From assembly GCA_045616625.1 (NCBI GenBank), contig JAZLHA010000013.1:4201-68200 (forward strand): DNA of 64,000 bases, read 5' to 3'. This document shows, piece by piece, positions 291-61,703 of this stretch (the first letter of the stretch is position 1; the number at the start of each line of letters is the position of its first letter). Below the pieces are notes generated by a model. The model made no database searches. It was not told the origin of the DNA and worked only from the letters and a program-made list of their open reading frames with translations. The translations under genes were made by a program, and so were the position numbers. This stretch comes from Candidatus Enterousia sp. GTDB lineage: Bacteria; Pseudomonadota; Alphaproteobacteria; Rs-D84.

Positions 291-1697
291 TTATCTTATG
301 TAACTCTCTAGTATGCTTGATGCTTGAGCGTGAGCATCAGATAGACCATCATTCTGTGCCCCCCCCCCACTCGACTCGGAATTATTAGATGTTTCAGCGT
401 TGTTGCCGTTTCCATCAGTTTGAGAGGGTGTTTCAGCGTTGTTGCCGTTTCCATCAGTTTGTTCTTCTCCGGGATTAGCTTCACCTGCTGCCTTTTGTGC
501 TTTCTTTAAATCTTTTTCAGCCTTGGTACGATCAATTGAGCGCTTCATTGCACCGGATGTTATCGCACCAACCGCCGTTCCAACCCCAGCACCCAACATC
601 GCAGATGATGCCGCCGTTTGTGAACGGGTTAAACGATATGCATTTTCTTTGAATGTTGTAATATCTATGCCAAAATAGTCAGGATTACAATCGAATGTTG
701 AGCCGGCATACGCCTTTTTGGATGCGTATGGGGTTTCTGAATTGTTCGCAAAGAAGTCAATTGAATAAACACAATCCAGACTACGATCGTCAAACATTGC
801 GCCAATCAAACTGCACTGTGTGCGCATCTTGTCACGTAATTCGTACAGACGTTCTTCGTCCTTTTTTACCTGAATTTCACTGTTTTCACGCAGGGTGGCA
901 AATACCGCCGATGAACGTGCCGCCAATCCTGAATCTTGTTCAATACATTTTTTCGCAATTTTGCTACATTCGGCAATTGCGGCGTCCCCGTATTTCTTGC
1001 CAATGCATTTCATAAATGTTGGACCGCACTGTTTTACAATACAACTGTTGTAATCGTTACCACAATTTATAATCGATTCGTATCCGGATACCTTTTGTGC
1101 CATATCGCGATCGGCCTTGATTTCCACAGCGAATAGGGTGAATTCATGTGCACTACATTCAACCTTTGACCGGCATGATTCAATTTTGTTGCTCCATGCA
1201 GTATCGGTGTCGCCGGCACAATTTACAAAGTCGTTACCGCATTTATCGGTCATACAGTTACGTAAATCTGTATCACATTTATTTCTTGAATTGCCAGATA
1301 TAGATGCTTTTATCGTAGTGGCATTTATTTCGTTTGCAACCGCAGCGTCCGCCGCTGCACGTTGTGCGCGAATTTTGTCCGATAATTCCGAATCATTGTC
1401 CGATTCGTTTGTGAAACTGGATGTTGTTGAAAATTGCGATGATTTGTCTTGAATTACAAATTCTGGTTCCGATTTAATTGTGTTTTCTGGTTCAGGTTCG
1501 GATTCGGACACTGGTTCAACCGCTTTTGTTGCAACCTTTGGGTGCGCCGCAGGTGTCGCCACAGTGGTGCGTTTTATAGTCGTGCGTTGTGCAACCGCAG
1601 CATCAGCAAGCCCAATATGCGCACACATAATAATTGGTGCTAACAATAATTGACTATAAAAAATCAAACTTTTTTGTTTCATTTTATTGTCCTGCAT
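291..1697 (-). CDS. Secreted cysteine-rich paralog family protein (P1) with a glycine-zipper segment and a C-terminal 13-aa tandem repeat
   Basis: 468-aa ORF with a signal-like N-terminus (LLLAPIIMCAHIGLADA). The module CDTDLRNCMTDKCGNDFVNCAGDTD is shared with the ORFs at 1679, 48303, 51059 and 53192. It has a Gly-zipper (GAGVGTAVGAITSGA). An alternative start (M6, 1682) would abut the upstream stop codon. Confidence 0.75.
   Translation of the reverse strand: MQDNKMKQKSLIFYSQLLLAPIIMCAHIGLADAAVAQRTTIKRTTVATPAAHPKVATKAVEPVSESEPEPENTIKSEPEFVIQDKSSQFSTTSSFTNESDNDSELSDKIRAQRAAADAAVANEINATTIKASISGNSRNKCDTDLRNCMTDKCGNDFVNCAGDTDTAWSNKIESCRSKVECSAHEFTLFAVEIKADRDMAQKVSGYESIINCGNDYNSCIVKQCGPTFMKCIGKKYGDAAIAECSKIAKKCIEQDSGLAARSSAVFATLRENSEIQVKKDEERLYELRDKMRTQCSLIGAMFDDRSLDCVYSIDFFANNSETPYASKKAYAGSTFDCNPDYFGIDITTFKENAYRLTRSQTAASSAMLGAGVGTAVGAITSGAMKRSIDRTKAEKDLKKAQKAAGEANPGEEQTDGNGNNAETPSQTDGNGNNAETSNNSESSGGGAQNDGLSDAHAQASSILESYIR
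359..368. repeat. C10 homopolymer (G10 on the coding strand) inside the 3' end of the P1 gene
   Basis: Read directly as tgtgcc+cccccccc+ac. It encodes the GGG in ...SESSGGGAQ... . It is a conspicuous G/C tract in otherwise AT-rich DNA. Confidence 0.9.
391..461. repeat. Tandem direct repeat: an identical 32-nt core repeated with a 39-nt period inside P1
   Basis: gtttcagcgttgttgccgtttccatcagtttg occurs at 391-422 and again at 430-461. It encodes QTDGNGNNAETPS / QTDGNGNNAETSN. Confidence 0.95.
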
Positions 1698-2566
1698 GCC
1701 GTTTCGTAAAAACTACACAGGCTGATTGCCATTGGTTTTTCCTTGAATTTATCGCTCTTTTCAATATCTTTTTGACATTTGTCGCGCATATTGTTCGCAC
1801 ATACTGTTGCAACACATCTGTCGCGGGCGGTATTGTCGGTGCAACCAGAACGGATTTCAGTCAGTTTCGATTCGCGTGCCTGTTTGTATGATGCAATAAT
1901 TCTATCTATTAAATCATCCTTGGCTTCAAAAAGATTTGCACGAACTGTTTTTAATTTGGTTTTGATAGATGCTGTATGCTCGGCACAATTAGATGCTTCA
2001 ATTGCACATTCTGCAAAAACACGATCAAAATCCGAATCGGTTTTACAGTTTGAATAGTCAATGCCGCATTTTTTGTCACGTGTTATACATTCCGATATGT
2101 CTGTTTCGCATTCAGGCATTTTCTTTGCCACTGCTTTCTTTGCTTTGGCGGCAATATTCGACATTTCCTGGCTTATGCCGGCGGCAGTACACGATTGTTC
2201 AATCAAAATATCGTACACCTCAGATACATCATCAGGGGTACAATCTGGTAATTTTTTAAGGCATTGTTCGGTCCCCCAAATATAACGTTGACCAGGATCG
2301 TCGTTTGGTGCAGATTTTAAGTCCTTGTCAGAAATAGTGTATTTTGTTGAACCTGTGGATACGGAACGCATACCGGTTGCCTTGGGTGCGCCAGCAGTTG
2401 CTGTGCCACAATATTGGCAACGTGCCGCCGGATTAGAAGATAAGTTTATTGCACATACAGAATCCAAACAACGCGTTAAATTTGCATGCGAACAAGACGC
2501 CGCCCATCCAGAAAATGGAATGGTCGCCAAACACGAAGCAATACAAATAAATTTTAGTGCTTTCAT
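1679..2566 (-). CDS. Secreted cysteine-rich paralog family protein (P2)
   Basis: The ORF 1679..2611 was trimmed to M16 (MKALKFICIASCLATIPFSGWAASC, a signal peptide), which is preceded by AAGAGAG. The module CETDISECITRDKKCGIDYSNCKTDSD matches the family. The gene overlaps or abuts P1, so it is probably in the same operon. Confidence 0.7.
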   Translation of the reverse strand: MKALKFICIASCLATIPFSGWAASCSHANLTRCLDSVCAINLSSNPAARCQYCGTATAGAPKATGMRSVSTGSTKYTISDKDLKSAPNDDPGQRYIWGTEQCLKKLPDCTPDDVSEVYDILIEQSCTAAGISQEMSNIAAKAKKAVAKKMPECETDISECITRDKKCGIDYSNCKTDSDFDRVFAECAIEASNCAEHTASIKTKLKTVRANLFEAKDDLIDRIIASYKQARESKLTEIRSGCTDNTARDRCVATVCANNMRDKCQKDIEKSDKFKEKPMAISLCSFYETACRTIK

Positions 2567-37814: not shown

Positions 37815-38800
37815 TGAATGTGGCAGAGGTTAAAGAATATAAAGTTGGTAAGGGCAATCCCCCAAAAGAATACCAATTTAAACCTGGGCAATCTGGTAAT
37901 CCTGGTGGTAAGCGAAGGAAACCCAAACAACAATCAACATTTATTGATGATTTTATTAAAGAATTAAATACGATAATTGTGACCAAAGATGGTAAAAGAA
38001 TGACCAAGAGTCAGGCTATGGCAAAATCTATGATACATGATGGTATAGGTAAAAACGCTAGTGCACGTAGGGATGTGATAAAAATAGTAACATATAATAA
38101 CGCCCGGAATGCTAATTCCACAAAATTATGGGATCGTTTGCTGGACTCGGGGATTCTTACCGAGGAAAAAGCCATCGAATTTGCTAACCATCGTGGAAAG
38201 TTTCAGCCAAATATGCACATTCTGTCTATTCAGCAGATAGACCGTGTAAGAACACTTGAAGCGATGGATATGTTGGATAACATTGCACACATTTATTCAC
38301 TAGTTGATATACATGAAATGGCTAAAAATATTTTACAGACAGTAATTTGTGAAAAATCTTTTTGGGATTCTATTGAAGAGGTGTGGCAAGTTCGTAATAT
38401 CGGTGCCGATGAAACAGAAGTCGAACGTTCACTGTTCCAAGCAACCCGTGTATATCCATGCCCTACAGAATTGATATGCAATACTGCATTTGAACTTTGT
38501 GCATGGGCTAAATACGAACTGGTTGAATGGTTTATAGAATTAAGGGATTATTGCAGTAGTTTACCAGATTTTAGATATTTAGGCGCAGATAGGGCGAAAT
38601 GGGTTAAGCAGTTGCTTGTGGAAGCCAAATGGGATTCACATGTTAATGAAAAAGCATTATCTGGGTTCCTGGATATGCTACACAAAGATAGTAATGATTT
38701 TAAAAAGGTTACTGCCCCAGAAAAGATTCAAACCCCGCACCTAACCAGATGCAATGTTAATGCGTTGTTTGATTGGTATAAAATTCCAGATACACATTAA
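37814..38800 (+). CDS. Phage-associated hypothetical protein (DUF5681-like N-terminus)
   Basis: GKGNPPKEYQFKPGQSGNPGGKRRKPK is the motif I associate with DUF5681. The start overlaps the methylase stop. Confidence 0.5.
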   Translation: MNVAEVKEYKVGKGNPPKEYQFKPGQSGNPGGKRRKPKQQSTFIDDFIKELNTIIVTKDGKRMTKSQAMAKSMIHDGIGKNASARRDVIKIVTYNNARNANSTKLWDRLLDSGILTEEKAIEFANHRGKFQPNMHILSIQQIDRVRTLEAMDMLDNIAHIYSLVDIHEMAKNILQTVICEKSFWDSIEEVWQVRNIGADETEVERSLFQATRVYPCPTELICNTAFELCAWAKYELVEWFIELRDYCSSLPDFRYLGADRAKWVKQLLVEAKWDSHVNEKALSGFLDMLHKDSNDFKKVTAPEKIQTPHLTRCNVNALFDWYKIPDTH

Positions 38801-39863: not shown

Positions 39864-40952
39864 TTAAATCGTGTCAGATGTTGTAATTTCTACATCGGTT
39901 ATTGGTTGGGTTTTATTTTCGTCCAGGCTGTGATATTGGTATGGAATTGTTTTAAAATCAATCGCACGCATATCTATATGTCGTATATTTCTGTTATACA
40001 TTGTATGATAATATATTTGCATATTTGTTAAATCTGTTGCGATTGTCCATTGAGTCGCTGATGGCATATTGTTTGGTGCCTTGTCCACATTAAATTGAAC
40101 ACCCAATGGAACATCAAAATTATTTAAAATATGAAATGCCTGGCGAATTGATTCAGATGCTGAAGCTTGTTGTAATGAATATGTTTCAAAAAATGCGGCA
40201 CGAACAAAACGCGATGGTGGGGTAAAGTCCCCAGGCAGGCCTAAAAATCCACTGCCGGCACCAGTTGGGCGTAATTCAACATCGTGCATTGTTTTGGGGG
40301 CAACTGCCCCAGGATGTAAATTGATATAATTATTAAGGTTTGTTAAATGCCATTCGTATCCTGGTGCATTTGTTAAAACCCCCAATTTGCTTTCGTAAAA
40401 TTGTGGAATACCGTTGATAATTTCTAAAATAATTTGATTGCCGGCTCTGTCAGTAATGCGCCAATGAACGGTTTCCGCACGCGGGTCAAAATTTATTACG
40501 CGTATGTTATTTACTGCCGTCTTTACATCGTCTAAGTTATCAAATTGCGATAATAACCATGGAACCAGTTGAAAGTCTGCGATTGTGTTTTCTGTATATT
40601 CAGGGTTATAGTTTTGATATTTCCCATATTTCGGAAAATAGAATAGGGCTGCGGACAGACCTGCTTCATTTGTGCCGTCAATTATATATTCGGGTGCTAG
40701 TACTGCTAAACCAACATATCCATATTTTGCGGTGAATAACATTCCGCCATCAGCGTTGTTCGGCAATGATGAACGACTCGTATGACCACGCGGAACAACA
40801 ACATACATGTTGTCCATTTCTTCGCCAGACCAATCCATTGTGCGTGCAACAATAATTGATTTATCTTTGGATTTTAATGTTATGCCTGTACAGGCATTTG
40901 TAATGTTTGGTAATAATAAAATAGTGCTTAATAAAATATATTGTAATTTCAT
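39864..40952 (-). CDS. Choloylglycine hydrolase / penicillin V acylase family (Ntn hydrolase), secreted
   Basis: The signal peptide ends ...PNITNA|CTGITLKSKD, which exposes the nucleophile Cys as in this family. The length (362 aa) fits. Confidence 0.7.
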   Translation of the reverse strand: MKLQYILLSTILLLPNITNACTGITLKSKDKSIIVARTMDWSGEEMDNMYVVVPRGHTSRSSLPNNADGGMLFTAKYGYVGLAVLAPEYIIDGTNEAGLSAALFYFPKYGKYQNYNPEYTENTIADFQLVPWLLSQFDNLDDVKTAVNNIRVINFDPRAETVHWRITDRAGNQIILEIINGIPQFYESKLGVLTNAPGYEWHLTNLNNYINLHPGAVAPKTMHDVELRPTGAGSGFLGLPGDFTPPSRFVRAAFFETYSLQQASASESIRQAFHILNNFDVPLGVQFNVDKAPNNMPSATQWTIATDLTNMQIYYHTMYNRNIRHIDMRAIDFKTIPYQYHSLDENKTQPITDVEITTSDTI

Positions 40953-41028: not shown

Positions 41029-42144
41029 TTATGCGACTTTGCGTAGACCTGATTTAATTTCGCGGATATATTTACGTAGATCGTCTATCGCAACTAATGA
41101 ACCATTACGTTTTTGTGCAGACCAATAATCCCAGCCATTAAAACTAACGCTGTGTTGAATACGCGCCGCCATGATATGAATAGACGCCTTGCCATATAAT
41201 GGGTGTGCCAATTGTCCATCAGATGTAATAATTGCACGTTCACCGTTTGGTGCAACCAATGTCTGACCAACATATAATAATCCAGCATCAATCAATTCAC
41301 GAAATGCGATGCGAATTTCATCACGTTTGGGTGCGGTTACTTCTATATCTGATAAATCAATAGGTTTAATGTTTTTAATACGTTTTAGTGCTGCATCAAC
41401 ATAAGATTGTTCACGTTCAAAACCGATAAATTGACGTCCTAATTCCTTGGCTGCCGCCGCTGTTGTTCCAGAACCCATAAATGGATCTAAAATAATTTCC
41501 CCGGGTTTGGTTGACGATAAAATTACACGACGTAATAAATCAAGTGGCTTTTGCGTATTATGCAGACTTTTGCCTGTTTCATCCTTGATTCTTTCGTGAC
41601 CCAAACAAATATCGATATTCCAATCAGAACGCATTTGTTTACCGCTGTTTAGTTTCTTCATCGTTTCGTAATTAAATGTGTATTTGCCAGTCTTGCGCGG
41701 GGTTGCCCATATAAGTGTTTCGTGGGCGTTTGTAAAACGTGTTCCGCGGAAATTCGGCATAGGATTTGTTTTGACCCAAACAATGTCGTTCAAAATCCAA
41801 AAACCTAAATCTTGGAGAATTGCACCAACGCGGAAAATATTATGATAAGAACCAATTACCCACAACGCACCATCTGGTTTTAAAACGCGTTTACATTCTG
41901 ATAACCATGCACGTGTAAATTCGTCATATTGTTGTGGTGATTCAAATGCATCCCATGAATCACGAACAGCACGCGCAGCGGTTTGATCCTCTGGTCTATA
42001 TAGAGTTTTTTCACCCAGTTGTAAATTGTATGGCGAATCGGCAAATACTGCATCCACAGACGCATCAGGAATACTGTGCATCAGTTCGACACAATCACCA
42101 GTTAAAATCTGATTTAAGTATTTGTCCATCTCTCTCTTGGTCAC
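41029..42144 (-). CDS. ccrM: CcrM-like beta-class N6-adenine DNA methyltransferase with a C-terminal extension
   Basis: 371 aa. Motifs: ILTGDCVELMHSIPDASVDAVFADSPYNL, HNTQKPLDLLRRVILSSTKPGEIILDPFMGSGTTAAAA. It has a ~90-aa C-terminal domain as in CcrM/M.HinfI-type enzymes. Confidence 0.75.
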   Translation of the reverse strand: MTKREMDKYLNQILTGDCVELMHSIPDASVDAVFADSPYNLQLGEKTLYRPEDQTAARAVRDSWDAFESPQQYDEFTRAWLSECKRVLKPDGALWVIGSYHNIFRVGAILQDLGFWILNDIVWVKTNPMPNFRGTRFTNAHETLIWATPRKTGKYTFNYETMKKLNSGKQMRSDWNIDICLGHERIKDETGKSLHNTQKPLDLLRRVILSSTKPGEIILDPFMGSGTTAAAAKELGRQFIGFEREQSYVDAALKRIKNIKPIDLSDIEVTAPKRDEIRIAFRELIDAGLLYVGQTLVAPNGERAIITSDGQLAHPLYGKASIHIMAARIQHSVSFNGWDYWSAQKRNGSLVAIDDLRKYIREIKSGLRKVA

Positions 42145-48302: not shown

Positions 48303-50588
48303 TTATTTTGTCAAAGGTATACAATACCCCCATTGAGTGTTAGCACTGGTTTCTGAATAAAATCTTTCCAGTGTTTTTTCTGTGGAATCTTTTTTTAGTG
48401 GGGTTGATACCCATTGACCACCTTGACGTTCGCATTCATTTGCAAGTTCTTTACTCATATCTATCTTAATAGCAGATATTACTGTGACAATATCTTCCAT
48501 AACGGTACTTGGAACGGTATATGTTTGTCCTGACGTTGAAGACCGAATACATACTTGTGATGCATAGCGGATCAGTTTTTGATATAAACTGTCAGAATAA
48601 TCAGGATCACAACCTGCTGTTGCTTCAGATTCGGTATTCCATATACACTGATTGGTTACATCCATCCCAGTTTCGTTGCACTCGCTACATTCAAATTTAC
48701 CTGTCATCGTATTATACCCCGAACACTTTCTACAATTGGTAGGACATTTATAACAATAGTTATTGGTCTTATAATATCCATCGTTACAATTGGTGTATAT
48801 TTTTGTACAAGAACCTAATTTGTTGAGTTGCGTCTCATCAGGTGTTTCACCGCCAATCGCTTCAGTGGATATAGAGGATGCATATTTATTACAGCCTTCA
48901 TTAATTGCATCTTTATATGCGCCAGGTGCATAAGTACGACAACTGTACGGATATTGATGTATGGTATCTGTGGCTGAAACGGTGCACATGTTTTTAACAT
49001 AATTTTGTAAATTTGTTAGGCATGCCGATTCAATCTTTGTATCAGTGATTTGTTGCATCGCAGAAATTAATGCGGTTTGTCCCTCTGTTCCACCGCCATA
49101 TAAGTTGCTACATGCGGTTAATTTTTCCCGGCACATTTCTTCTGACACTTCAAGACGGGATCCGATTAATAAGTTTTCATCGATATTACTAAAATCTTTT
49201 AATTGTGCGTTTTGTTCGTCATAACATTGGTTTACAACATTTAAACATTCTTCTTTGACCTGGCGAATTTTATCTTGTTGTGCCTGATATATTTCTGTAA
49301 TAGCCTGAATTAAAAACTCGTTCCAAACCTCTGATGATACATCTCTACATTTATCCAGAGTGTTTTTGGCAAAAGTTTTTTTGTTATTTAATTCTGAAAC
49401 AATTAAACGATTTTGTTGATTTGTTAATATATCACCAGATAAAGATATTTGTGTTTCTAGTTGATAAAACTTTGATGTATAAATAGGTTCACCGGTAATG
49501 CTGTTTAAATACAATCCTGTGATGTCCATACAGTGAACATAATCGGTACCACATGCAGAATCCTGGGTCAGATCAGAACGAACCTGGGAGATACAATCGT
49601 TTATAGGTGTTGAATTGTGGGCGTTATAACTTTCAAGACGTGCATAATTCATTTCGCGTTCTGTTTCGCGTATGGCACTATTGGCAGAGTTTTTATTTTT
49701 ATCTAGTTTTCTAAGTATTAATGCACAATCGTTTTCAATATACATTCCATATGCAGATACAACCATATTCAATATAGATTGTGATGGACACTGAGTTGTA
49801 ACAAAATCAACACATTGACTATGTACTGCGTTATAGAGTTTTTCGCCTGTTAAATTTGCTAAATTCGCACCAGATGTTAATTCTGTTGTTGACCATATTT
49901 CGTTTATATCGCCACCAATATCCAATGCCCCAGATGTAGATAAAGATTTGCTTTTTGTTTTTGATAAGATGGAACTGATACCAGCGAGTGTATTAGCAGC
50001 ATTCGATGTATCTTTTGCATTCGTTGCGGCTGTTTCACCATTGGTTTCGGTTATCATTGCCTTTACTTCATCACTTGATTTGTTAATTGCATCAATGTTG
50101 AGATTTTTAAATGTTTGTAAAGAATTATTGGTGTCATCCAACGCACGTTTGCGAGATTGTATTTCGGAAAGCCTTGAAGAACAAACGCAGCGACGATATT
50201 CATCATTTTGGTTTGCACAAAATTGATCCATGCATGTAAAATACGCATCATGGCATGTGTTATACCCAGAATCAAATGTTTTGGTTGATATTGTGGTTGC
50301 AGCGCGTGAAGTAAGCGCAGAATTACGAGCGCTAATATTTGTAGCTGCGGTTCTTGCAATTCGTGAGGTAATACTGCTTTTTGCTGTACGTACAGTTTTG
50401 GTGGATGCGGTACGTGCTGTCGTTCTGGTACTGGTTGCGGTTCGTGTAACGTTTGTTTTTCCTATTGTTCCCGAACGTGAAGATGTTTGGATGCTTCGTT
50501 GATTGTTTGGTGCAGTACGAACAGCAGCATCAGTATTGCTGATGCTAATAAAACACAGAGCCAAGATAAAGCACAATCCCCTTTTCAT
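48303..50588 (-). CDS. Secreted cysteine-rich paralog family protein (P3)
   Basis: The ORF was trimmed to MKRGLCFILALCFISISNTDA (signal peptide). The motif CHDAYFTCMDQFCANQNDEYRRCVCS is shared with P4 and P5. A Thr/Ser/Arg-rich low-complexity N-region is present. An EGF/furin-like block (CYKCPTNCRKCSG...CSEC) lies near the C-terminus. Confidence 0.75.
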   Translation of the reverse strand: MKRGLCFILALCFISISNTDAAVRTAPNNQRSIQTSSRSGTIGKTNVTRTATSTRTTARTASTKTVRTAKSSITSRIARTAATNISARNSALTSRAATTISTKTFDSGYNTCHDAYFTCMDQFCANQNDEYRRCVCSSRLSEIQSRKRALDDTNNSLQTFKNLNIDAINKSSDEVKAMITETNGETAATNAKDTSNAANTLAGISSILSKTKSKSLSTSGALDIGGDINEIWSTTELTSGANLANLTGEKLYNAVHSQCVDFVTTQCPSQSILNMVVSAYGMYIENDCALILRKLDKNKNSANSAIRETEREMNYARLESYNAHNSTPINDCISQVRSDLTQDSACGTDYVHCMDITGLYLNSITGEPIYTSKFYQLETQISLSGDILTNQQNRLIVSELNNKKTFAKNTLDKCRDVSSEVWNEFLIQAITEIYQAQQDKIRQVKEECLNVVNQCYDEQNAQLKDFSNIDENLLIGSRLEVSEEMCREKLTACSNLYGGGTEGQTALISAMQQITDTKIESACLTNLQNYVKNMCTVSATDTIHQYPYSCRTYAPGAYKDAINEGCNKYASSISTEAIGGETPDETQLNKLGSCTKIYTNCNDGYYKTNNYCYKCPTNCRKCSGYNTMTGKFECSECNETGMDVTNQCIWNTESEATAGCDPDYSDSLYQKLIRYASQVCIRSSTSGQTYTVPSTVMEDIVTVISAIKIDMSKELANECERQGGQWVSTPLKKDSTEKTLERFYSETSANTQWGYCIPLTK

Positions 50589-50683
50589 CCTATGTTTGTA
50601 ATCGTAGCAAAAAAAATTGTTATAAGGCAAGTGCTATTTAATGGTTTTGTTTATACAAAAAAACCTATCTTGCGACAGGTTTT

Positions 50684-50929
50684 TTAATTTGCATTTTCTT
50701 GACTTTGGCGACTGTGTTCAACAAAGGTTATTCGCCCCTTATCTAAATCATAAGGTGTCATTTCAACGTGAACTTTTTCGCCGACATTTACCCATATACG
50801 TGCTTTGCGCATTTTACCGCAAACTGTTGCCAAAATTTCGTGACCATTTTCAAGTTTAACACGAAACATAGTATTTGGTAATTTATCTTCTACTACGCCT
50901 GAGAATAAAATAACATCATCTTTTGCCAT
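50684..50929 (-). CDS. infA: Translation initiation factor IF-1
   Basis: [69 protein letters not shown]. Confidence 0.92.
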
Positions 50930-51058
50930 ACCTGCAATACCTCTTTACGTTAATGATAGAATTTGAGCAAAAAAAAGCAAGAATATTTTTTTATCTGCTT
51001 GCGATAAAATATATTTTTTGATAAAATACAACATAAGAATGTAAATATGGTGGGATTC

Positions 51059-53167
51059 ATGAAACTAAGAAACATTGCTATATTATTATGTATATTGCCT
51101 GGTGTGGCTTTTGCTGCGGCACGTTCGGGGTCTGCACGTGTTGGTGTTGGACGGACAAATGTACCTGTGCGTGCATCGGGTGCTGCTGTGCAACCGTCTA
51201 TATCAGAATCTTCAGAATCTAATGCTATTGAATCAATAAAAAGTGATGTAGTGGCGGCTGCTCCAGCAAAAGCGCCTGAGGCAAAACCAAAAGATTGCCG
51301 TACAGCGTATCGTGCCTGTATGGATGAGTTTTGTTTACTAGGGGAATCAGAGGGGTATCGTTGCGCATGTAGTGATAGTATAAATAAATCTAAATCGCTA
51401 ATAAAAGAAATTCAAGATATTCAGAAAGAAGCAGATAAGTTGTTTACTGAGGGTGTGGCGCGTGAGGAATTAGGTGCCAAGGCTGCGCTTGTTTTTGGCG
51501 AAAGCGATTCGGCTAAAAAGAGTTCGCGTTTGTCTGGAATTAATTTTTCGGATTGGTTGAATTCTGGTGATGATGAGACTGCGTTAGATTCTGATGAAGA
51601 AATTGGTGATACTTTATATTCCATTGCGTCTGATTATTGTGCGTCTGAATTAGAGGCTTGTGGTTCCAAGGCTGAAATGGAAGAAATGCTTTATTCTCGT
51701 CAAGTTGTTGCAGATTGTAAAGAATTTAGTTCTTATTTGGCCGATCAAAAATCAAATGCAGAGGCAAATAAAAGAACTGCAGAGTCTGCGGTTCGTAAAG
51801 CGCGTGCAGCTATGTTGGATACAACAAATAAATATAATCGTGGTGAATGTTTGTTGGCGTACAAAGCGTGTATTGCTGATAAAGGTGGCTGTGGTGTGAA
51901 TTTTGAAAATTGTTTGGATGAAGATTTATTGCAACGTCGTGCTTATTCTTGTAATGATGTGTTAAATCAATGTATGGCGGATAGAGAATATGTTTTACAA
52001 GACTGGCAGGCAGAAAAGAAAACAATACTGGCAGATGCGGCAGAGTATGCTGATAAAAATCGTCGTGGAACGTGTTTGGCAAAAATACAAAATTGTTTGG
52101 AAGAAGACTGTGCAACATCAACTGATTCAATGTGTTTAAATGATGTGAATGTTGCAGCAGGCGTTTGTCCTATTATTACAGAATGTGAAGAATTGATTCC
52201 AGGAATACGTTCTGTTATAAACGATAAATTGGTGTATTTAAGAACGAGTTTTTGTCAAAATGATATAGATGCCTGTTTGCGTGATAAATGTGGTCAAGAT
52301 TTTACCGCACCTGAATGTCTTGGTAAAAAGGCATCGCAAATTGCGGCATTGTGTCCACAATCTATGTATCCTTCGTGCAAGAATGAAAAACAATTTGATA
52401 TTATTGTTAGTTCTATTCTGCTTGAAATGGATTATAAGATGCTGGATAGTTGTATCAATCATTTTGCTGATAAATTAAGTGCAGTGTGTGGAACAGATAT
52501 GGCTTGTTTACCAGAAGATACTACAATATTAGCATTACAAAAATATCCAAATGATGCAAGAATTGATGAATTACAGGAGCAAGTTCTTGTAAATGCAGAT
52601 GCTGCAGTGGACGAATTCTTTAAACAGTTTGAAAATGATATAACGGTTTCTGCATGTTTAAGTAGTCAACAGCCAAAAGGTAGTAGCAAGAAATCTTTGG
52701 GTGATAGTATATTTAATTCTGCAAAAATGATTGCAAAAATAAGCGCTGAAAATCGTTCACAACGTTTGTTGGATACAAAACTTGCAGAATTGTCACGGCA
52801 AGAAGACTTGGCAAAAGCGGAAAAGAATTGTAATACATTATATAAACCAGGAAAACCAAAGAAAGATGAAAAGAATTATACTTATATTAAAAGTGTAAGT
52901 TTCGAACCGTCTTTGCGTAATTGCCATGTTTGTCGTGTGCAACAGGTATGCGAGGTTGGTGGTGAATCCAAAGCGACATCTGCATTAAAGGCAGCGGCTG
53001 GTGGTTTGTCCGCGGGTGCTGCGGCTGGAACAATGATTAATGCTGGTTGGGGAACCGCAATTGGTGGTGTTGTTGGTGCTGTTGGTGCCGGATTGGTTGG
53101 TATGGCATCTGGTGGTGAAAAAGAATTCTGTCAAGAAATAGAATCTTGTGAAGATGTAAATATGTAA
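51059..53167 (+). CDS. Secreted cysteine-rich paralog family protein (P4) with a C-terminal glycine-zipper segment
   Basis: The start was moved to MKLRNIAILLCILPGVAFA, preceded by GGTGGGA. Motifs: CRTAYRACMDEFCLLGESEGYRCACS and CQNDIDACLRDKCGQDFTAPEC. A Gly-zipper (GGLSAGAAAGTMINAGWGTAIGGVVGAVGAGLVGMASGG) is present. The protein ends CEDVNM. Confidence 0.75.
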   Translation: MKLRNIAILLCILPGVAFAAARSGSARVGVGRTNVPVRASGAAVQPSISESSESNAIESIKSDVVAAAPAKAPEAKPKDCRTAYRACMDEFCLLGESEGYRCACSDSINKSKSLIKEIQDIQKEADKLFTEGVAREELGAKAALVFGESDSAKKSSRLSGINFSDWLNSGDDETALDSDEEIGDTLYSIASDYCASELEACGSKAEMEEMLYSRQVVADCKEFSSYLADQKSNAEANKRTAESAVRKARAAMLDTTNKYNRGECLLAYKACIADKGGCGVNFENCLDEDLLQRRAYSCNDVLNQCMADREYVLQDWQAEKKTILADAAEYADKNRRGTCLAKIQNCLEEDCATSTDSMCLNDVNVAAGVCPIITECEELIPGIRSVINDKLVYLRTSFCQNDIDACLRDKCGQDFTAPECLGKKASQIAALCPQSMYPSCKNEKQFDIIVSSILLEMDYKMLDSCINHFADKLSAVCGTDMACLPEDTTILALQKYPNDARIDELQEQVLVNADAAVDEFFKQFENDITVSACLSSQQPKGSSKKSLGDSIFNSAKMIAKISAENRSQRLLDTKLAELSRQEDLAKAEKNCNTLYKPGKPKKDEKNYTYIKSVSFEPSLRNCHVCRVQQVCEVGGESKATSALKAAAGGLSAGAAAGTMINAGWGTAIGGVVGAVGAGLVGMASGGEKEFCQEIESCEDVNM

Positions 53168-53191
53168 TAGGTCCAGAGGGAGAGAGAAACA

Positions 53192-55660
53192 ATGGCAACA
53201 AAAAAAATATTTTGTTCTATTACTGCGTTATTGATGTGTTGTGTTGTATATGATGCTTTTGCTGCAACAAAAACAACAAAACAATCTGCGATACAGTCCG
53301 GAACAACTGTTCGTGCCAAGGTTGCTGCAACCGGTATTTATGACCAAGAATGTTATGATATGTATTATGGTTGTATGGATCAGTTTTGTATTACCGAAAA
53401 TACAGATGGTGGTAGTTGCGCTTGCAGTAATGATTTTACAAAATATGAAAAAAAATTGGTTGGTATCAAAGATACACTGGAACGGGCAGAAAAAATTTCA
53501 ACCGAGGAAGTAGAGCGTATAGAAGCTGGTGCAAATGCTGATATTATATTTAATGGTGTAAGAACATATGATGAAACAGGAAATATTGGCGAATCAGAGG
53601 CTGATAAAAAAACAAAGAAACGTGAATCTTTATTAGCAATGTTTAATACACCTGTGGAAGATGAAGATGTGTTTGATAGCGGTTATGAAGATTTGTCTTC
53701 CAAGGTTGGTGCTGATTTGTTTAATGGTGCACATAGTTTGTGTGTTGACCAAATGGATGATTCTTGCGAGAAAGATATTCCATTTTTGAAACAAATTTAT
53801 TCACGTCAAATTGTTGCAGATTGTAAGGCTTTATCTAATAGTGTTTCCAAGAAAGAATCAGAAGCAAAACAAACTTTATTGGCGGCGGAATCAGCTGTGC
53901 GTTCTGCATTAAAAGATAGTTTAAAGTCTGCAAATAAATATGACCGTGGCGAATGTATGGTTGAATATAAAAAATGTATGCAAAAAGAAGAAGCTTGCGG
54001 TAAAAACTGGGAATATTGTGTGTCTGATGTCGCATTTGAAAATATGCAAAATGATACGGCGGTATCAACAGCCAAGAAAAAATTTGTTAGTGTAGATACT
54101 TATAATATTACACAATCAACGATGGAGATATTAGATTCGAAACGTTATATTTGCGAAAGAGTGTTAGATTCTTGTGTCGCTGTGCGTGATATGGTTTGGA
54201 ATGATTTCTTGCGTGAAGCGGCACCAACAATTCGTTTGGCTGAAACTCAGGCTGAATCAAAAAAACGTCAATCTTGCTTATCTAGTATTTCAAATTGTAT
54301 TCAATCAGCGTGTAAGGACAAGATAAATAAAGGTGTAGAATCAATGGACGCATGTTTGGCGTATCCAGAGATAGTGCGTAGTTCTTGTAAGATGGAAATT
54401 GACCCATGTGAACGTATGGAACCTAAAATTTGGTTCTATGTTAAAGATAAATTGGCGGCAATGCGTGTTGATGCCTGTACCACAGAAGTTAAAGATTGTT
54501 TTACTGATGATACGCGTTGCGGTAAGGACTTTTCAAAATGTATAGGTATGGATTTTGATTATATACATAATATTTGCCCGATTGATAAATTGGTTGTATG
54601 TAAACAGGGCAATCCAAAGTTTTCTATGGAAGATTTAGATAATATGCTAATGGGCTTGTATTTGAATATTGATAATTCTATGTTGGATAATTGTCAAAAT
54701 CTGATTGACCAAAAAATGACAGAAGTTTGTGGTAGTACAACCGATTGTAATCGTTTCGCCGCGGATGAAGTTTTAGGAAGCAGTTCACTGCGTTCGCAGA
54801 AAAATAAAGATGTTTATCGTGTGACAGGTATGATTTCATTCGGCAGTATAAAAGTTGGTGATGTATCGGGTAAAACAAAAGATGGTAACGGTAAGTTAGA
54901 GCCTGGACAAATTGGTGTAGCTGATTATATTGAAAATGTTCGCGAGAAAAATACAAAGTCTGGCGATGAAGACATTATAGTTACCATAGAAGAAGAATTG
55001 AATAATATAGCGGGCACTATTAATCGAACAATAGAGATGATAGAAAATGATCCACAGATTCAATTTTGTGTGTCTGGTCGTGATTTAGGTCAGATTACTG
55101 GTAAGAGTGACGAAAAGACAGAGGCACGATTCCCGAATTTGTTGAATTCTGTAAAAATGCAAATAGCAGTTTCTGCTTTACGTAAAGCTCAAGACAATTA
55201 CAATGCAAAACTTACTAAAGAAATAGCTGAAGCTACCAAGAATACCTCTGCTGATATAGCACAGTATATGTGTCAAAAAATTGCAGAAAGTGGAAATATT
55301 AAAAGTTTTGCAAGCATTGCACCTTCGACACCATTAACACCTCCATACGCAATTAGTTATGATGTTGCAAGTGGTTTAAATGACGTAGATTTGACTACTG
55401 GTGGTGCAGGAATGTCGCAGTTGGCAAATTCAGAGTATAATAATTCTGGTTATTTGGGTGGCAACAGTGGAACTTTGGGAGGTGTTACAAAAGAAGTTAC
55501 ATCGGTATTTAATCGTGAAACTAGAATCTGTCATGTTTGCACAACAACGGCAACACAATCTTGCCATACGAGCGGTAGTGAATCATGGTTTCATAATAGC
55601 CGTAACACAGAATGTGAAACAACGTCTGATGGACCGAATTGTGAAGATATCGAAATGTAA
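53192..55660 (+). CDS. Secreted cysteine-rich paralog family protein (P5)
   Basis: 822 aa with a signal peptide (ITALLMCCVVYDAFA). Motifs: CYDMYYGCMDQFCITENTDGGSCACS and CTTEVKDCFTDDTRCGKDFSKC. The protein ends CEDIEM, like P4. Confidence 0.75.
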   Translation: MATKKIFCSITALLMCCVVYDAFAATKTTKQSAIQSGTTVRAKVAATGIYDQECYDMYYGCMDQFCITENTDGGSCACSNDFTKYEKKLVGIKDTLERAEKISTEEVERIEAGANADIIFNGVRTYDETGNIGESEADKKTKKRESLLAMFNTPVEDEDVFDSGYEDLSSKVGADLFNGAHSLCVDQMDDSCEKDIPFLKQIYSRQIVADCKALSNSVSKKESEAKQTLLAAESAVRSALKDSLKSANKYDRGECMVEYKKCMQKEEACGKNWEYCVSDVAFENMQNDTAVSTAKKKFVSVDTYNITQSTMEILDSKRYICERVLDSCVAVRDMVWNDFLREAAPTIRLAETQAESKKRQSCLSSISNCIQSACKDKINKGVESMDACLAYPEIVRSSCKMEIDPCERMEPKIWFYVKDKLAAMRVDACTTEVKDCFTDDTRCGKDFSKCIGMDFDYIHNICPIDKLVVCKQGNPKFSMEDLDNMLMGLYLNIDNSMLDNCQNLIDQKMTEVCGSTTDCNRFAADEVLGSSSLRSQKNKDVYRVTGMISFGSIKVGDVSGKTKDGNGKLEPGQIGVADYIENVREKNTKSGDEDIIVTIEEELNNIAGTINRTIEMIENDPQIQFCVSGRDLGQITGKSDEKTEARFPNLLNSVKMQIAVSALRKAQDNYNAKLTKEIAEATKNTSADIAQYMCQKIAESGNIKSFASIAPSTPLTPPYAISYDVASGLNDVDLTTGGAGMSQLANSEYNNSGYLGGNSGTLGGVTKEVTSVFNRETRICHVCTTTATQSCHTSGSESWFHNSRNTECETTSDGPNCEDIEM

Positions 55661-55760: not shown

Positions 55761-56117
55761 ATGAAAAAAATATCAATAGTTACTTTGGCAATGGGTTTAA
55801 CATTTGGTTCTGCATTTGCCGGTCAAATGGGGCATAATAATAAAATGCATGCTGCGCCGTCGGTTATGATGGTCCAAGATATAACAATGTTGAATGATGA
55901 TTCACGTGTTGTTGTCCAGGGATACTTGGTTCAAAATATGGGAAATGATATTTATGTGTTCCAGGATGCAATGGGTGATAAAATAATGATTGATGTTGAT
56001 GATGATGCGTGGGGTGAAATAATGGTTGGTCCAAACGATATGATAACAATTATGGGCGAAGTAGATAAAAATGGCGATACCGTTATGATAGATGTTGATA
56101 GAATTAAAAAGATGTAA
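55761..56117 (+). CDS. YgiW/YdeI (bacterial OB-fold, BOF) family periplasmic protein
   Basis: It has a signal peptide plus VVVQGYLVQNMGNDIYVFQDAMGDKIMIDVDDDAW, which is typical of this family. Confidence 0.65.
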   Translation: MKKISIVTLAMGLTFGSAFAGQMGHNNKMHAAPSVMMVQDITMLNDDSRVVVQGYLVQNMGNDIYVFQDAMGDKIMIDVDDDAWGEIMVGPNDMITIMGEVDKNGDTVMIDVDRIKKM

Positions 56118-56132
56118 ATTTGTATATCAAAT

Positions 56133-56156
56133 AAAAACGCCCGATTGGGCGTTTTT
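56133..56156. terminator. Bidirectional hairpin terminator
   Basis: aaaaacgccc-gatt-gggcgttttt lies between convergent genes. Confidence 0.7.
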
Positions 56157-57237
56157 ATTTGTTTGTTAGTTTTAATTCTATACGTCTGTTTTGTTGTAAA
56201 TCATCAGGTGTATTACCCAACGCAAACGGATGTGTATCACCAAAACCTGATGGTAGTAAACGACGACGTGATACACCGTTTGTCGCCAATTCATTTACAA
56301 CGGCTGTTGCGCGTAATAATGATAATTCTGTGTTATCTTTATATGCTGCGGTTCCGGCAATTACAGATTTTTTATCGGTATGTCCATCAACACGAATCAA
56401 CCAATCAATATCAGATGGAATTTTGTTTTCAAAATCTTTGATAACATTTGCAAGTATGCGCAGTTGGTTTTTCCCAGATTCTGATAATGTGTATGAGCCT
56501 GATTTGAATAATATGTCGCTGGAAACGATAAATCTATCGCCATCGGCACGTAGTGTTGTCCTATCGCCCAATGCTTTTTTAACTTGTCTGTAAAAATCAG
56601 ATTGATATTGTGACATTTCGTTTAATTCTGCAACCTTGTCCGCCAGAGCGCGATTTAATCTGTTTGACATTTCGGCATATTCTACTTCTTGGGTGGCTGA
56701 CTTTTCTTCGGCTGCATCCAGGGCTGCTTGTAATCTTGCAATCTCGGCATGTAATTCGTCAGCCTGTTCTGCACTTAATGTTTCAGAATTTGATTGTTCC
56801 GCAACAAGTGCATTTAATTCGGTGGCAAGTTCGTTTAATTCCGCTTGTGCTGAATCGGTTTGTGATTGTAGTTCTTTTATCTTGGCTTCGTACGCACCGA
56901 CTAAATCATTAATACTAAGGTTAATGTCAGATATTTCAGCATTTAATTTATCGTTGTTCGTTGCCAAGTTTTCCAATTCATCGCGTGCAATAACAAGTAA
57001 TGAATTAGCCTCTGCGGTGTCTGCAGACATTTGTTGAATAGATGCCGCCTGTTCAGCGTTTATTTGACGTAAGTCAGCCATTTCCTTGGCAGTATTAGAT
57101 TTGTTGAAAACATTTGTGGTTGTCCATAAAAATACAAATACAATCAACAAAAATATCAAAATAATTACAAGATTGGAAAACAGGTCAACGAATCCTGGCC
57201 ATGCACTTGTCTGATTTCTAAAACGTATGTTTAACAT
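56155..57237 (-). CDS. MotB/OmpA-like peptidoglycan-binding protein with N-terminal TM and a long coiled coil
   Basis: It has a TM segment (LVIILIFLLIVFVFLW), about 170 aa of heptad-like Ala/Glu/Leu/Gln sequence, and an OmpA-like C-terminus (TELSLLRATAVVNELATNGVSRRRLLPSGFGDTHP...NRRIELKL). Confidence 0.7.
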   Translation of the reverse strand: MLNIRFRNQTSAWPGFVDLFSNLVIILIFLLIVFVFLWTTTNVFNKSNTAKEMADLRQINAEQAASIQQMSADTAEANSLLVIARDELENLATNNDKLNAEISDINLSINDLVGAYEAKIKELQSQTDSAQAELNELATELNALVAEQSNSETLSAEQADELHAEIARLQAALDAAEEKSATQEVEYAEMSNRLNRALADKVAELNEMSQYQSDFYRQVKKALGDRTTLRADGDRFIVSSDILFKSGSYTLSESGKNQLRILANVIKDFENKIPSDIDWLIRVDGHTDKKSVIAGTAAYKDNTELSLLRATAVVNELATNGVSRRRLLPSGFGDTHPFALGNTPDDLQQNRRIELKLTNK

Positions 57238-57274
57238 TTTCTTCTCTCTCTTGGTTTGCTGTTTTTATCAGCGG

Positions 57275-58006
57275 TTAATTGTTGTTTCGTCGTGTTATTT
57301 CGCGTGTTGATAAATTTATTTGCGGTATCGAATCGGATAATTCAGTGTGCGCCGATAAATAATCTTCAAGTTCACGAAAGATTCCATTCTGTGCCAGTTG
57401 AACATGTAATCCCAAAAATCCAACAGATAAACTAAATGCCAAACCAAGCAGCGAACTTGTAAAAGCGGTTGCCATACCTGATAAGGGTTGACTTAATCCC
57501 GCCTGCATAGTATTTAAAACCGATTCACTTGAAAAATCCAATGCCGCAATCAAATTTGAAAAACCGCCAACCGTCACAATCAATCCCCAAAACGTTCCAA
57601 GCAATCCTAAAAATATAAGTGTGTTTGTTATGTAACGCACAGATTCACGCGAATCTTCGAATCGGACCATTATCATATCCATGCACCCCTGGAGTGTGTT
57701 TGTTGTAATTTTTGATGGGTTTGTTCGCAATAGCATTGCAACCGGTTTAAGCAGAATAGGTGGTGTTGGTGCATTTTTATTTCCACGTAAAAATGCCGAC
57801 AACCAACGATATTCAGGTAATAATTTGAACATTTCGGTAAAGCATAGCCCGATTCCAAAAATTCCGGTGCCAATAATTATTCCATTTAATATGACATTTG
57901 AAATCGCAATAGAAATAAATTGATTCCAAAACAAAATCACCCCGGCAACCAATAAAGCCGTGAAAAACGCCATTCTATTAAGGGTTCTATGAAAATGATT
58001 TGTCAT
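57275..58006 (-). CDS. MotA/TolQ/ExbB proton-channel family protein
   Basis: The start was moved to MTNHFHRTL. It has 3-4 TM segments and the family motif IFLGLLGTFWGLIVTVGG. Confidence 0.7.
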   Translation of the reverse strand: MTNHFHRTLNRMAFFTALLVAGVILFWNQFISIAISNVILNGIIIGTGIFGIGLCFTEMFKLLPEYRWLSAFLRGNKNAPTPPILLKPVAMLLRTNPSKITTNTLQGCMDMIMVRFEDSRESVRYITNTLIFLGLLGTFWGLIVTVGGFSNLIAALDFSSESVLNTMQAGLSQPLSGMATAFTSSLLGLAFSLSVGFLGLHVQLAQNGIFRELEDYLSAHTELSDSIPQINLSTREITRRNNN

Positions 58007-58138
58007 AAAATCTCTCTTTATTACTAAATGATAGTAAATAACAGGATTTAATGTCAATAAAGAATTGAAAGAAAACACTTGTTTAGATTCCTGAAAAAAT
58101 GTAAAATATATTCAGTACAAAAAAGAGGAGATGTAATA

Positions 58139-60801: not shown

Positions 60802-60881
60802 TATTTTTTCACATTTAGTGCTTGCGCTTTTAAATAAATTTGTCTATTGTTATATCGTTCAAACAAACAAAGGAGAAAACT

Positions 60882-61703
60882 ATGACTTGGACAATACTAG
60901 TATTGTTGATTGCTATAGCTCTGTACTTGTTTGGCGGTATGCTAATCAAGGACGGCGGTAAAAAAGCATCAGCTAATTCAATCTGGATGAAAAAGGTTAT
61001 CAAACTGCTTTCCATTCTGTTGATTGCAGGATGTGTTTGCCGTTTATATACACCAATTTATCTAGTTCACACTAACCCGATGATTTTGCAAGAAGTCGTC
61101 ACCAGTATGCAAGAAAAACAGAGTGCTGTGAAAAACAAAATGATTCGTAAATACGTTCGTTCTCATGGTGCAGAAATGGTTGAAAACGCACCTGTATTAG
61201 GTAACGTTGATGCAGAAAAGACGATTTATATCTGGACAGATTTCTCTTGCCCATATTGCCGTCGTGTTCATGGCGAATTAGAACGTGTATTGGCTGATCG
61301 TAGCGACGTTCGCGTTGTTATCAAAAACTTCTCTATCCATGGTGCTTTGTCTGATGCTCCTGCACGTGCAGTTATTGCTGCAAAAATGCAAAGCAATGAA
61401 ATGGCTGCTAAATTGGCAAGTGCTTTGATGACAAAAGAATACTTCTCGCCTGCTGATATGAAAGATCAGGCTAAATTGGGTGACAAAGTCAAAGCAAACG
61501 TCATGAAGTTTGCAAAAGAAGTTGGCTTGGATACCAAGAAATTAGCAGAAGATATGGATAGCGCAATTGTTAGCAAAGAATTGTTGAATGTTCGTCAATT
61601 GGCTCAACAATTTGAAATCAGCGGAACACCATTCTTGATTGTTCAAGAACAGGCTTTCCCTGGTGCAGTTCCATACGAACAGATTATTGATGCGTTGAAT
61701 TAA
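60882..61703 (+). CDS. DsbA-family thiol:disulfide oxidoreductase, membrane-anchored
   Basis: The start at MTWTILVLLIAIALYLF is preceded by AAAGGAG. It has the CxxC active site in WTDFSCPYCRRVH and GTPFLIV near the C-terminus. Confidence 0.75.
   Translation: MTWTILVLLIAIALYLFGGMLIKDGGKKASANSIWMKKVIKLLSILLIAGCVCRLYTPIYLVHTNPMILQEVVTSMQEKQSAVKNKMIRKYVRSHGAEMVENAPVLGNVDAEKTIYIWTDFSCPYCRRVHGELERVLADRSDVRVVIKNFSIHGALSDAPARAVIAAKMQSNEMAAKLASALMTKEYFSPADMKDQAKLGDKVKANVMKFAKEVGLDTKKLAEDMDSAIVSKELLNVRQLAQQFEISGTPFLIVQEQAFPGAVPYEQIIDALN

Follow-up and report, generated by a model that had tools for sequence, protein, structure and literature searches.

A predicted family of large, exported, cysteine-rich proteins flanking infA in Candidatus Enterousia

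What are the very large, cysteine-rich proteins that a gut bacterium with a streamlined genome encodes on both sides of infA, and where in the cell might they work? The question arises from a stretch of 64,000 nucleotides (nt) of Candidatus Enterousia sp. (assembly GCA_045616625.1, contig JAZLHA010000013.1, positions 4,201 to 68,200 of the forward strand), here called the window. Three open reading frames (ORFs) in it, P3, P4 and P5, surround infA, and two further cysteine-rich genes, P1 and P2, lie at its other end. Candidatus Enterousia belongs to the GTDB order Rs-D84 of the Alphaproteobacteria; its genomes are mostly smaller than 1 Mb and lack flagella, respiration and most biosynthesis, and dependence on partner cells is suspected (PMC12306168). 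The lineage is uncultured and occurs widely in the guts of ruminants, horses, chickens, humans and termites. On the evidence of sequences and predicted models, P3, P4 and P5 represent a new protein family with a new fold, and their biological function is still a matter of hypothesis.

Three paralogs around infA

The genes on which the argument turns are the following.

48303..50588, minus strand: P3, 761 amino acids (aa); signal peptide, polycationic disordered tail, predicted helical core with putative Cys staples, hypervariable Cys block, small alpha/beta C-terminal domain
50684..50929, minus strand: infA (translation initiation factor IF-1), between P3 and P4; PF01176 in related loci
51059..53167, plus strand: P4, 702 aa; signal peptide, short tail and, in the predicted model, a helical core and a C-terminal beta-sheet clamping a glycine-zipper-like hydrophobic hairpin
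53192..55660, plus strand: P5, 822 aa; two modules, extra region 520-775, CHVC...CEDIEM ending, without hydrophobic anchor
1679..2566, minus strand: P2, 295 aa, Cys-rich, signal peptide
291..1697, minus strand: P1, 468 aa, Cys-rich, signal peptide, two modules, glycine-zipper-like segment

A preliminary description of the window had reported P3, P4 and P5 as signal-peptide-bearing ORFs flanking infA, and had estimated that P1 to P5 take up about 9 kb of the 64 kb. The three ORFs are present at the coordinates and on the strands listed, and the five genes together count 9159 nt. For P3, the ATG at 50588 was taken as start in preference to a TTG further upstream, at 50630, which falls within the -35 element of a conserved promoter and was rejected on that account. 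Each of the three proteins has a Sec-type N-terminus, with a K/R n-region, a hydrophobic core of 12-15 residues and an AxA-like site, as had been proposed, and by a simple heuristic the same holds for 119/120, 120/120 and 115/120 of their orthologs. The predicted mature N-termini resemble one another (AVRTA at residues 22-26 of P3, AARSG at 20-24 of P4, AVAQR at 34-38 of P1), being Ala-rich with Arg at position 3-5, which may be a sorting or processing signal.

That P3, P4 and P5 are true paralogs is statistically solid at the level of sequence comparison. P4 and P5 match by BLASTP at E=1.7e-57 (29% identity over 490 aa), P3 and P5 at E=4e-21, and P3 and P4 at E=9e-8; P3 matches the hidden Markov model (HMM) of the family at E=1e-281. 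The sequence landmarks that tie them together are these.

51296..51370, plus strand: family signature CxxxYxxCMDxFC...CxCS, P4 residues 80-104; in P5 from 53351, in P3 from 50255 (minus strand)
51848..51913, plus strand: Module 1, Cx6Cx6CGxNFxxC, P4 residues 264-285; region common to P1 and P2
52253..52318, plus strand: Module 2, a degenerate duplicate, Cx6Cx4CGxDFx4C, P4 residues 399-420

A six-frame scan of the window with the expression CxxxYxxCMDxFC gave exactly three matches, one per protein, in agreement with the earlier claim of a common N-terminal motif, and the signature columns are invariant in alignments of 92-114 sequences. The repeated Cys modules noted earlier also stand: Cx6Cx6CGxD[FY]xxC is found in P4, P5 (twice), P1 (twice) and P2, and hhalign supports a duplication inside the family core (segment B against D, probability 82%, E=1e-5). 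Self-comparison of five P4 core segments revealed one duplicated module and no regular short repeat. The CHVC motif and the CED(V/I)xM ending that P4 and P5 were said to have in common are both there.

How far does the family extend? Homologs of each of the three proteins number about 900-1350 in a collection of 5.8 billion proteins (904 for P3, 991 for P4). None carries a Pfam domain, except one probable fusion artefact, and all that are named are 'hypothetical protein', from gut 'Alphaproteobacteria bacterium' metagenome-assembled genomes (MAGs) or from Candidatus Enterousia. When a family profile was run exhaustively against 1.84 billion cluster representatives (50% identity), 989 members came up at E<=1e-3, of which 544 reached E<=1e-30; among the matches listed, the most divergent named members were Alphaproteobacteria or Proteobacteria MAGs too. 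No member of the family was found in plasmid records or viral contigs. A scan of one genome per species yielded at least 564 encoding stretches, the best 80 of which serve for the species comparisons of loci given here; all 80 are Enterousia or Alphaproteobacteria MAGs, from ruminant, horse, chicken, rabbit, human and termite guts. The best explanation of these sequence data is a superfamily confined to the Rs-D84 / Candidatus Enterousia lineage, in which P3, P4 and P5 would be ancient paralogs.

Gene order is similarly stable. The arrangement P3 (minus), infA (minus), P4 (plus), P5 (plus) is retained in about 72 of the 80 species representatives, the rest being mostly contigs cut short, and the genes that flank this block vary among species. 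We regard infA as a synteny anchor, and probably not as a functional part of the P3-P4-P5 system. Mean identity to the window proteins across species is 63% for P4, 59% for P5 and 48% for P3; in the same species set infA reaches 87%, ClpX 82%, a DsbA-like protein 62% and a MotA-like protein 65%. The identity of P4 is similar to that of the DsbA-like and MotA-like proteins, and P4 is therefore taken to be under purifying selection. Judged by their sequences, P3, P4 and P5 evolve like ordinary envelope housekeeping proteins, unlike hypervariable antigens, and form part of the core genome conserved in a lineage of reduced genomes, not of a variable antigen family. Three to five such large paralogs amount to about 1% of coding capacity in a streamlined genome.

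The intergenic regions are conserved as well, and they bear on how the block is transcribed.

50601..50630, minus strand: P3 promoter with extended -10, TTGCCT-N18 (spacer includes TG)-TACGAT, 12 nt before the ATG
50655..50681, minus strand: probable infA terminator, hairpin and T-tract directly past the infA stop, between infA and P3
50999..51027, plus strand: P4-P5 promoter with extended -10, TTGCGA-N17-TAAAAT with TG
55761..56117, plus strand: BOF/YgiW-type periplasmic OB-fold protein, PF04076 E=1e-20

Upstream of P3, TGnTAnnnT occurs in 76 of 78 species (21 in shuffled sequences) and the full promoter element in 54 of 78 (1.4 in shuffles). Ahead of P4, TTGnnn-N13-16-TGnTAnnnT stands 28-34 nt before the ATG in 79 of 80 species, against 2.2 in shuffles. 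No promoter element of P5's own was found in any of the 62 species examined, and the P4-P5 gap, 25 nt in the window, has a median of 25 nt across species; P4 and P5 therefore form an operon. The BOF gene follows P5 in 36 of the 80 loci and is possibly co-transcribed with P4-P5, to judge by the sequence: the sole strong terminator of the region in the window, at 56128-56161, comes after it. Since a tract of at least five T residues (T5+) follows the infA stop in 72 of 74 species, preceded by a GC-rich hairpin wherever the region was inspected, infA apparently has its own terminator. An infA-P3 operon, with expression of P3 at the level of IF-1, was accordingly rejected, given this tract and hairpin and the conserved promoter of P3 itself. 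Indirectly, the conserved promoters point to expression of P3 and of P4-P5. The promoter of the lineage is in general very regular (TTGnnn, spacer, TGnTAnnAT) and, together with the infA T-tract and hairpin, should be useful for annotating these MAGs.

Cysteines, predicted fold and variable regions

The cysteine content of P3, P4 and P5 is 4.6-5.2%, against less than 2% in most ORFs of the window, and corresponds to 33-36 Cys per mature protein. Measured on non-redundant orthologs (less than 80% pairwise identity), conservation is 100% at each of the 36 mature Cys of P4 and of the 36 of P5, against an average of about 66% at other residues. Exactly 36 mature Cys were counted in 118 of 119 orthologs of P4 and in 93 of 120 of P5, and 22 Cys are invariant in all three orthogroups. 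In P3 the conserved Cys comprise these 22 in the core and 7 at the C-terminus, an odd number, plus a variable block. A pairing test of the paralog-specific Cys found seven in the core that are specific to P4/P5, the C-terminal alignment being unreliable. Spacing is far from random: C-x6-C occurs 7 times in P3, 8 in P4 and 10 in P5, where 1.4-1.9 are expected (P<=2e-4), a 5-6-fold enrichment.

AlphaFold2 models of P4 and P3, built from alignments of 92 and 114 sequences, respectively, suggest elongated and nearly all alpha-helical molecules. The mean predicted local distance difference test score (pLDDT) is 74.6 for P4 (predicted template modelling score, pTM, 0.35) and 77.4 for P3 (pTM 0.54), with about 90 in the core of each. 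The mature proteins comprise 55-59% helix and 4-5% strand in the models, with the longest helices spanning 48-55 residues; the N-terminal tails are disordered and the helical cores strongly acidic, with net charges of -19 to -25. Of the Cys, 27/36 in P4 and 21/33 in P3 lie in a helix or within two residues of one. Several C-x6-C pairs fall within one helix, on the same face and two turns apart; the two members of such a pair cannot bond each other and therefore must reach neighbouring elements.

Which enzyme might form these bonds? The window holds a candidate, kept at 62% identity in relatives.

60840..61703, plus strand: membrane-anchored DsbA-like thiol:disulfide oxidoreductase, CPYC active site, PF01323 E=9e-20

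This protein likely catalyses disulfide formation in P3, P4 and P5, in so far as sequence can tell; neither a DsbB nor a VKOR was seen within the 64-kb window. The picture of exported, disulfide-rich proteins given earlier is well supported indirectly, by the signal peptides, the even numbers of invariant Cys and the CPYC DsbA-like gene in the window.

Searches for a known relative returned nothing of significance. Against Pfam and NCBIfam, P3 and P5 matched no family at E<=1, and P4 matched only LAMB4 (E=0.15, 12 bits, cut-off 27) and YiaD (E=0.13, 12 bits, cut-off 175). Scans of sub-regions at E<=10 gave nothing significant, PHROGs contained no match for the family, and PADLOC offered only LeoBC at 16 bits. 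LAMB4, YiaD, LeoBC, RE_SinI, DUF759 and other weak matches were rejected as noise. A family profile of 92 sequences matched no PDB sequence at E<=1. With the models, Foldseek reached at best E=2.2 (P4) and E=0.68 (P3) against the PDB, with template modelling (TM) scores of at most 0.14, and E=0.066 (TM 0.12) against the viral fold library BFVD. The structures at the head of these lists (MscK, T7 ejectosome gp15/16, nuclear pore, colicin Ia, axonemal, tape-measure and internal virion proteins) were discarded as generic long-helix matches, with E>=0.066, TM<=0.16 and root-mean-square deviations of 16-60 Å in the rows cited. We found no description of the P3-P5 family in the literature, and an exact-match query with the P4 sequence from the window retrieved no record. 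Thus no characterised domain family matches in profile searches, and the statement that the family is undescribed holds across Pfam, NCBIfam, PHROGs, PADLOC, the PDB (by profile and by fold) and BFVD.

Two regions of P3 and one of P4 depart from the helical core.

50274..50525, minus strand: P3 tail, residues 22-105; T/A/S/R-rich, net charge +15, isoelectric point 12; pLDDT <50
48609..48893, minus strand: P3 hypervariable Cys block, residues 566-660; CxxYTxCxxGYY...CxxCP skeleton, S/T/P/G/N-rich linkers
52961..53113, plus strand: P4 glycine-zipper-like hydrophobic hairpin, residues 635-685; Kyte-Doolittle >1.4; pLDDT <50

The charge of the P3 tail is a general property, with a median of +14 in 115 orthologs. 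The Cys block is 10-40% identical between species, against about 70% in the core, and varies from 88 to 138 residues in length, and its 8, 10 or 12 Cys are even in number without exception. Within clusters of 90% identity, P3 is polymorphic mainly in its N-terminal tail and in the Cys insert; cluster 1 has 19 polymorphic columns in the tail and 19 in the insert, against 8 in 440 core residues. No polymorphic Cys occurs in the P3 and P4 clusters. AlphaFold2 places short beta-hairpins in the block at moderate to low confidence. The block had been called furin/EGF-like: as a Cys block it is real, but the label does not hold. P3 residues 585-665 match no Pfam family at E<=10, whether furin-like, EGF, VSP or GCC2_GCC3, and the CxxC...GYY skeleton is merely reminiscent of furin/EGF-type repeats. 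The variability of the insert suggests, as the single line of evidence and one drawn from sequence, contact with a diversifying selective agent.

The glycine-rich, transmembrane-like segment that had been pointed out near the P4 C-terminus is hydrophobic, G/A-rich and strongly conserved, with glycine-zipper models below threshold. In the model the end of P4 is a three-stranded sheet (607-633, 689-701) interrupted by the low-confidence hairpin 635-685, and no part of P4 is better conserved than its last 100 residues (80-100% identity). We consider the hairpin a putative membrane anchor or oligomerisation element. Of the glycine-zipper models considered (PF13441, PF13488, PF05433, NF053611), matches stayed below cut-off: Gly-zipper_YMGG at E=0.077 for P4 and 0.021 for P1, and YiaD at E=0.13 for P4.

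Where the proteins may act

How might these parts work together? The reading that we put first, tentatively and in the knowledge that it may well prove wrong, is an envelope assembly peculiar to this lineage, made of disulfide-stapled helical proteins and bearing an exposed, variable P3 tip; its surface location and its function are what we infer. After Sec export, the membrane-anchored CPYC DsbA-like enzyme would oxidise the cysteines to staples within each molecule. Pairs of Cys that share a helix face at a distance of one heptad would cross-link to neighbouring helices or loops, and stapling would yield protease- and stress-resistant helical rods. More speculatively, P3, P4 and P5 could assemble into one hetero-oligomeric envelope structure, which we propose because of their co-conservation, adjacency, divergent co-regulation and complementary features. 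P4 might be anchored in the membrane by its conserved glycine-zipper hairpin, clamped by a disulfide-bonded beta-sheet, with P5 as a soluble partner. The polycationic tail of P3 might bind an anionic partner, which could be the acidic cores of P4/P5 or polymers of the envelope, and its hypervariable Cys-knot tip could point outward and meet a diversifying agent such as a partner or host cell, an antibody or a phage. The most likely role would then be structural, as an apparatus in the envelope through which a gut bacterium that depends on partners makes contact. Given frozen synteny, conserved strong promoters and 36 invariant Cys each, it is very likely that the proteins are central to envelope biology.

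It is tempting to go further and to see in the triad, together with P1 and P2, an unprecedented membrane-anchored surface stalk, built of disulfide-stapled helical rods with a new fold and carrying a hypervariable Cys-knot tip, serving attachment to or exchange with host or partner cells; this stronger version we consider doubtful.

Several points weigh against the envelope assembly with an exposed tip. The odd number of conserved Cys in P3 sits badly with a purely intramolecular scheme, as far as sequence allows a count. The lineage is reported to lack the respiratory chains that would normally re-oxidise a DsbA-like protein. The glycine-zipper assignment in P4 is sub-threshold by sequence (E=0.08-0.13), and co-conservation and adjacency suggest a P3-P4-P5 complex rather than demonstrate one. 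Exposure beyond the periplasm is read from the sequence variability of the P3 insert and from nothing else, and relaxed constraint on a loop would be an alternative explanation for it. Finally, no lipobox, beta-barrel, autotransporter or known surface-export signal was found in the sequences of P3, P4 and P5, and the predicted signal-peptidase I sites lack a lipobox Cys. For want of such signals, the periplasm is the location to assume by default; the surface protein, lattice or adhesin proposed earlier is a conjecture.

This default leads directly to the main rival, which we think rather unlikely, with the lattice, effector and metal readings below it less likely still: a strictly periplasmic scaffold, in which stapled rods between the membranes would act as spacers, tethers or stress buffers, with P4 anchored by its zipper and nothing exposed at the surface. 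Lpp, OmpA and TolA-type connectors are a functional likeness. Sec signal peptides that come with no lipobox, beta-barrel or surface-export signal fit such a scaffold, as does a degree of conservation typical of housekeeping envelope parts. Frequent neighbours include the periplasmic BOF protein and an OmpA-domain / MotA-ExbB-like pair, and helices of 48-55 residues would measure about 7-8 nm at the usual helix rise, which is comparable to the width of the periplasm. The hypervariable Cys block of P3, polymorphic even within species, is hard to explain if it is shielded in this way, and the neighbours are inconsistent, the OmpA/MotA-like genes being present at 16-17 of the 80 loci and BOF at 36.

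If the disulfides were intermolecular rather than intramolecular, the proteins could instead form a Chlamydia-like envelope lattice, a rigid outer shell protecting a cell form that is transmitted and withstands the environment. That several envelope proteins encoded together are so rich in Cys would suit a lattice, and so would a host- or partner-associated bacterium with a reduced genome; the odd conserved Cys numbers of P3 (94 of 115 orthologs) and P1 (15) would leave a free thiol for it. We nevertheless hold it improbable, for the exactly 36 invariant, heptad-spaced Cys of P4/P5, on confidently predicted monomer helices, argue for intramolecular staples, no homology to OmcA or OmcB appears in Pfam or NCBIfam, and peptidoglycan and rod-shape genes are retained in the lineage.

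A role as released effectors or toxins, comparable to colicins or large exotoxins and directed against host or competitor cells, is very improbable. Large size, long helices and signal peptides would be compatible with it, an ankyrin-repeat protein in the window hints at interaction with eukaryotes, and colicin Ia and phage ejectosome proteins appear in the top rows of the fold search. Those fold matches, however, are insignificant (E>=0.68, TM<=0.14), the conserved block contains no immunity or secretion-system gene, and single-copy core orthologs with 50-65% identity and fixed synteny, absent from plasmids and viral contigs, are unlike toxin loci. Least credible of all is that the Cys serve a strict anaerobe as metal, Fe-S or redox-buffer ligands in place of disulfides: an anaerobic habitat and the lack of the respiratory chains that normally re-oxidise DsbA/DsbB would favour this, but the conserved core has no CxxC/CxxCH-type cluster motifs, the Cys are heptad-spaced on helix faces with even and invariant counts, a CPYC DsbA-like gene is kept in a genome of less than 1 Mb, and there are no metalloprotein-family matches.

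A new fold class of helices with heptad-spaced Cys, probably disulfide staples, is a target for structural biology. For microbiome research the family offers a specific lineage marker and, in the variable P3 tip, a candidate for a molecule of contact or an antigen. Secreted families without known relatives are, however, common in MAGs, and no long-standing question is resolved by P3, P4 and P5 as yet.

Relatives, neighbours and known systems

P1 and P2 had been grouped with the triad. They are Cys-rich, have signal peptides and share the module, which supports the grouping; they show no direct match to the family HMM, so that only a place as remote superfamily members, on sequence grounds, can be upheld. 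The tie runs through the module region alone, at hhalign probabilities of 30-36% (P2 36% over 78 columns). An iterated search starting from P2 reached P1, then fourth paralogs and then P5 orthologs, at more than 70 loci; a single-protein genome scan with P1 gave 2 loci, a method-limited number, the iterated HMM search being more informative. P1 overlaps the P2 stop codon by 19 nt, as in an operon, and in several species P1/P2 lie 4-5 kb downstream of P5. The fourth, more divergent members lie within a few kb of the triad in some species and match the family HMM at E=1e-27 to 1e-92.

Locus L139, 3-1844: fourth family member
Locus L152, 2-2800: fourth family member
Locus L156, 3-2528: fourth family member
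Locus L157, 8690-11779: fourth family member

Beside P2 and divergent from it, 2708-3220 (plus) encodes a small protein that has a membrane anchor, a stretch resembling a coiled coil and a CCCDC motif, and matches no family. Beyond the BOF gene, the pair at 56155-58078 (minus) encodes a MotA/ExbB-like channel (267 aa) and an OmpA-domain protein (360 aa) with an N-terminal transmembrane segment and a long coiled coil. The pair adjoins the P3-P5 block in 16-17 of the 80 species and may be a Tol/Mot-like envelope energiser, in a lineage reported to lack flagella.

Elsewhere in the window, 3359-7021 (plus) encodes the ankyrin-repeat protein, of 1220 aa, with N-terminal repeats (sub-threshold in Pfam) and otherwise no recognisable domain. 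Its involvement in interaction with eukaryotes is possible, judging from these repeats; a faint resemblance to type IV secretion system / Legionella Ank effectors was rejected as noise. ClpB at 7695-9752 (plus) lacks the N-terminal domain, matching model positions 149-852, and there is no room or remnant for that domain because an L28-like gene (7163-7537, minus) lies directly upstream. A choloylglycine hydrolase family protein, bile-salt-hydrolase-like (39864-40952, minus; PF02275 E=5e-68), is a gut-adaptation gene in a minimal genome. The region 10842-42144, especially 20867-24074 and 29429-38800, has the character of a mobile/defence-type island. It contains a serine recombinase (21998-23620) and DUF2924 beside tRNA-Ser (20867-20956), four DNA methyltransferases (29429-31139, 36519-37814, 41029-42144), ApeA-NTD (31690-33132), DUF4747 (33791-34660), a Mu F-like fragment (14962-15567) and a Zeta-toxin-like kinase (10842-11618), and its GC content dips to 0.28-0.29 at 10-12 kb and 32-34 kb.

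How do P3, P4 and P5 compare with systems already known? The likeness to chlamydial Omc proteins, Hcp, glycine-zipper lipoproteins, parasite coats and CHCH proteins is in each case limited to individual principles. With chlamydial OmcB/OmcA the family has in common several co-encoded, very Cys-rich envelope proteins with signal peptides, a host-dependent bacterium with a small genome and, as predicted for P3, P4 and P5, periplasmic disulfide chemistry. OmcB is beta-rich with DUF11-type repeats and OmcA is a small lipoprotein with a lipobox; P3, P4 and P5 show no sequence similarity to either in Pfam or NCBIfam, are predicted to be 55-60% helical, lack a lipobox, and seem to form mainly intramolecular staples.

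Helicobacter Hcp, too, is a secreted, paralogous, all-alpha and disulfide-bridged family of a gut-associated bacterium, the disulfides being predicted in the present case. Hcp proteins are built of 36-residue Sel1 repeats detectable by Pfam, whereas P3, P4 and P5 have no Sel1/TPR match and one duplicated module only. The glycine-zipper outer-membrane lipoproteins (Rickettsia 17-kDa antigen / SlyB / YiaD) recall the G/A-rich hydrophobic hairpin of about 45 residues in P4 and P1. There, in contrast, the zipper is the core of a small lipoprotein; the P4/P1 matches are sub-threshold (E=0.02-0.13) and without lipobox, and the P4 hairpin is an insertion in the C-terminal beta-sheet of a 700-aa helical protein.

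Trypanosome VSG and Plasmodium DBL coats differ in showing no fold similarity in the PDB and in relying on switching families, whereas P3, P4 and P5 are bacterial, single-copy conserved core genes; the parallel, a conceptual one only, is an elongated, Cys-conserved helical scaffold with a variable region, as in P3. The CHCH proteins (twin-CX9C / CX3C) reside in the mitochondrial intermembrane space, where Cys pairs staple antiparallel helices after import. They are single hairpins of about 10 kDa with 4 Cys, unlike the 74-88 kDa and 33-36 Cys found here, and differ in spacing and without homology; yet both place Cys whole helical turns apart on one helix face, in P3, P4 and P5 as C-x6-C, two turns apart, in twin and quadruple sets.

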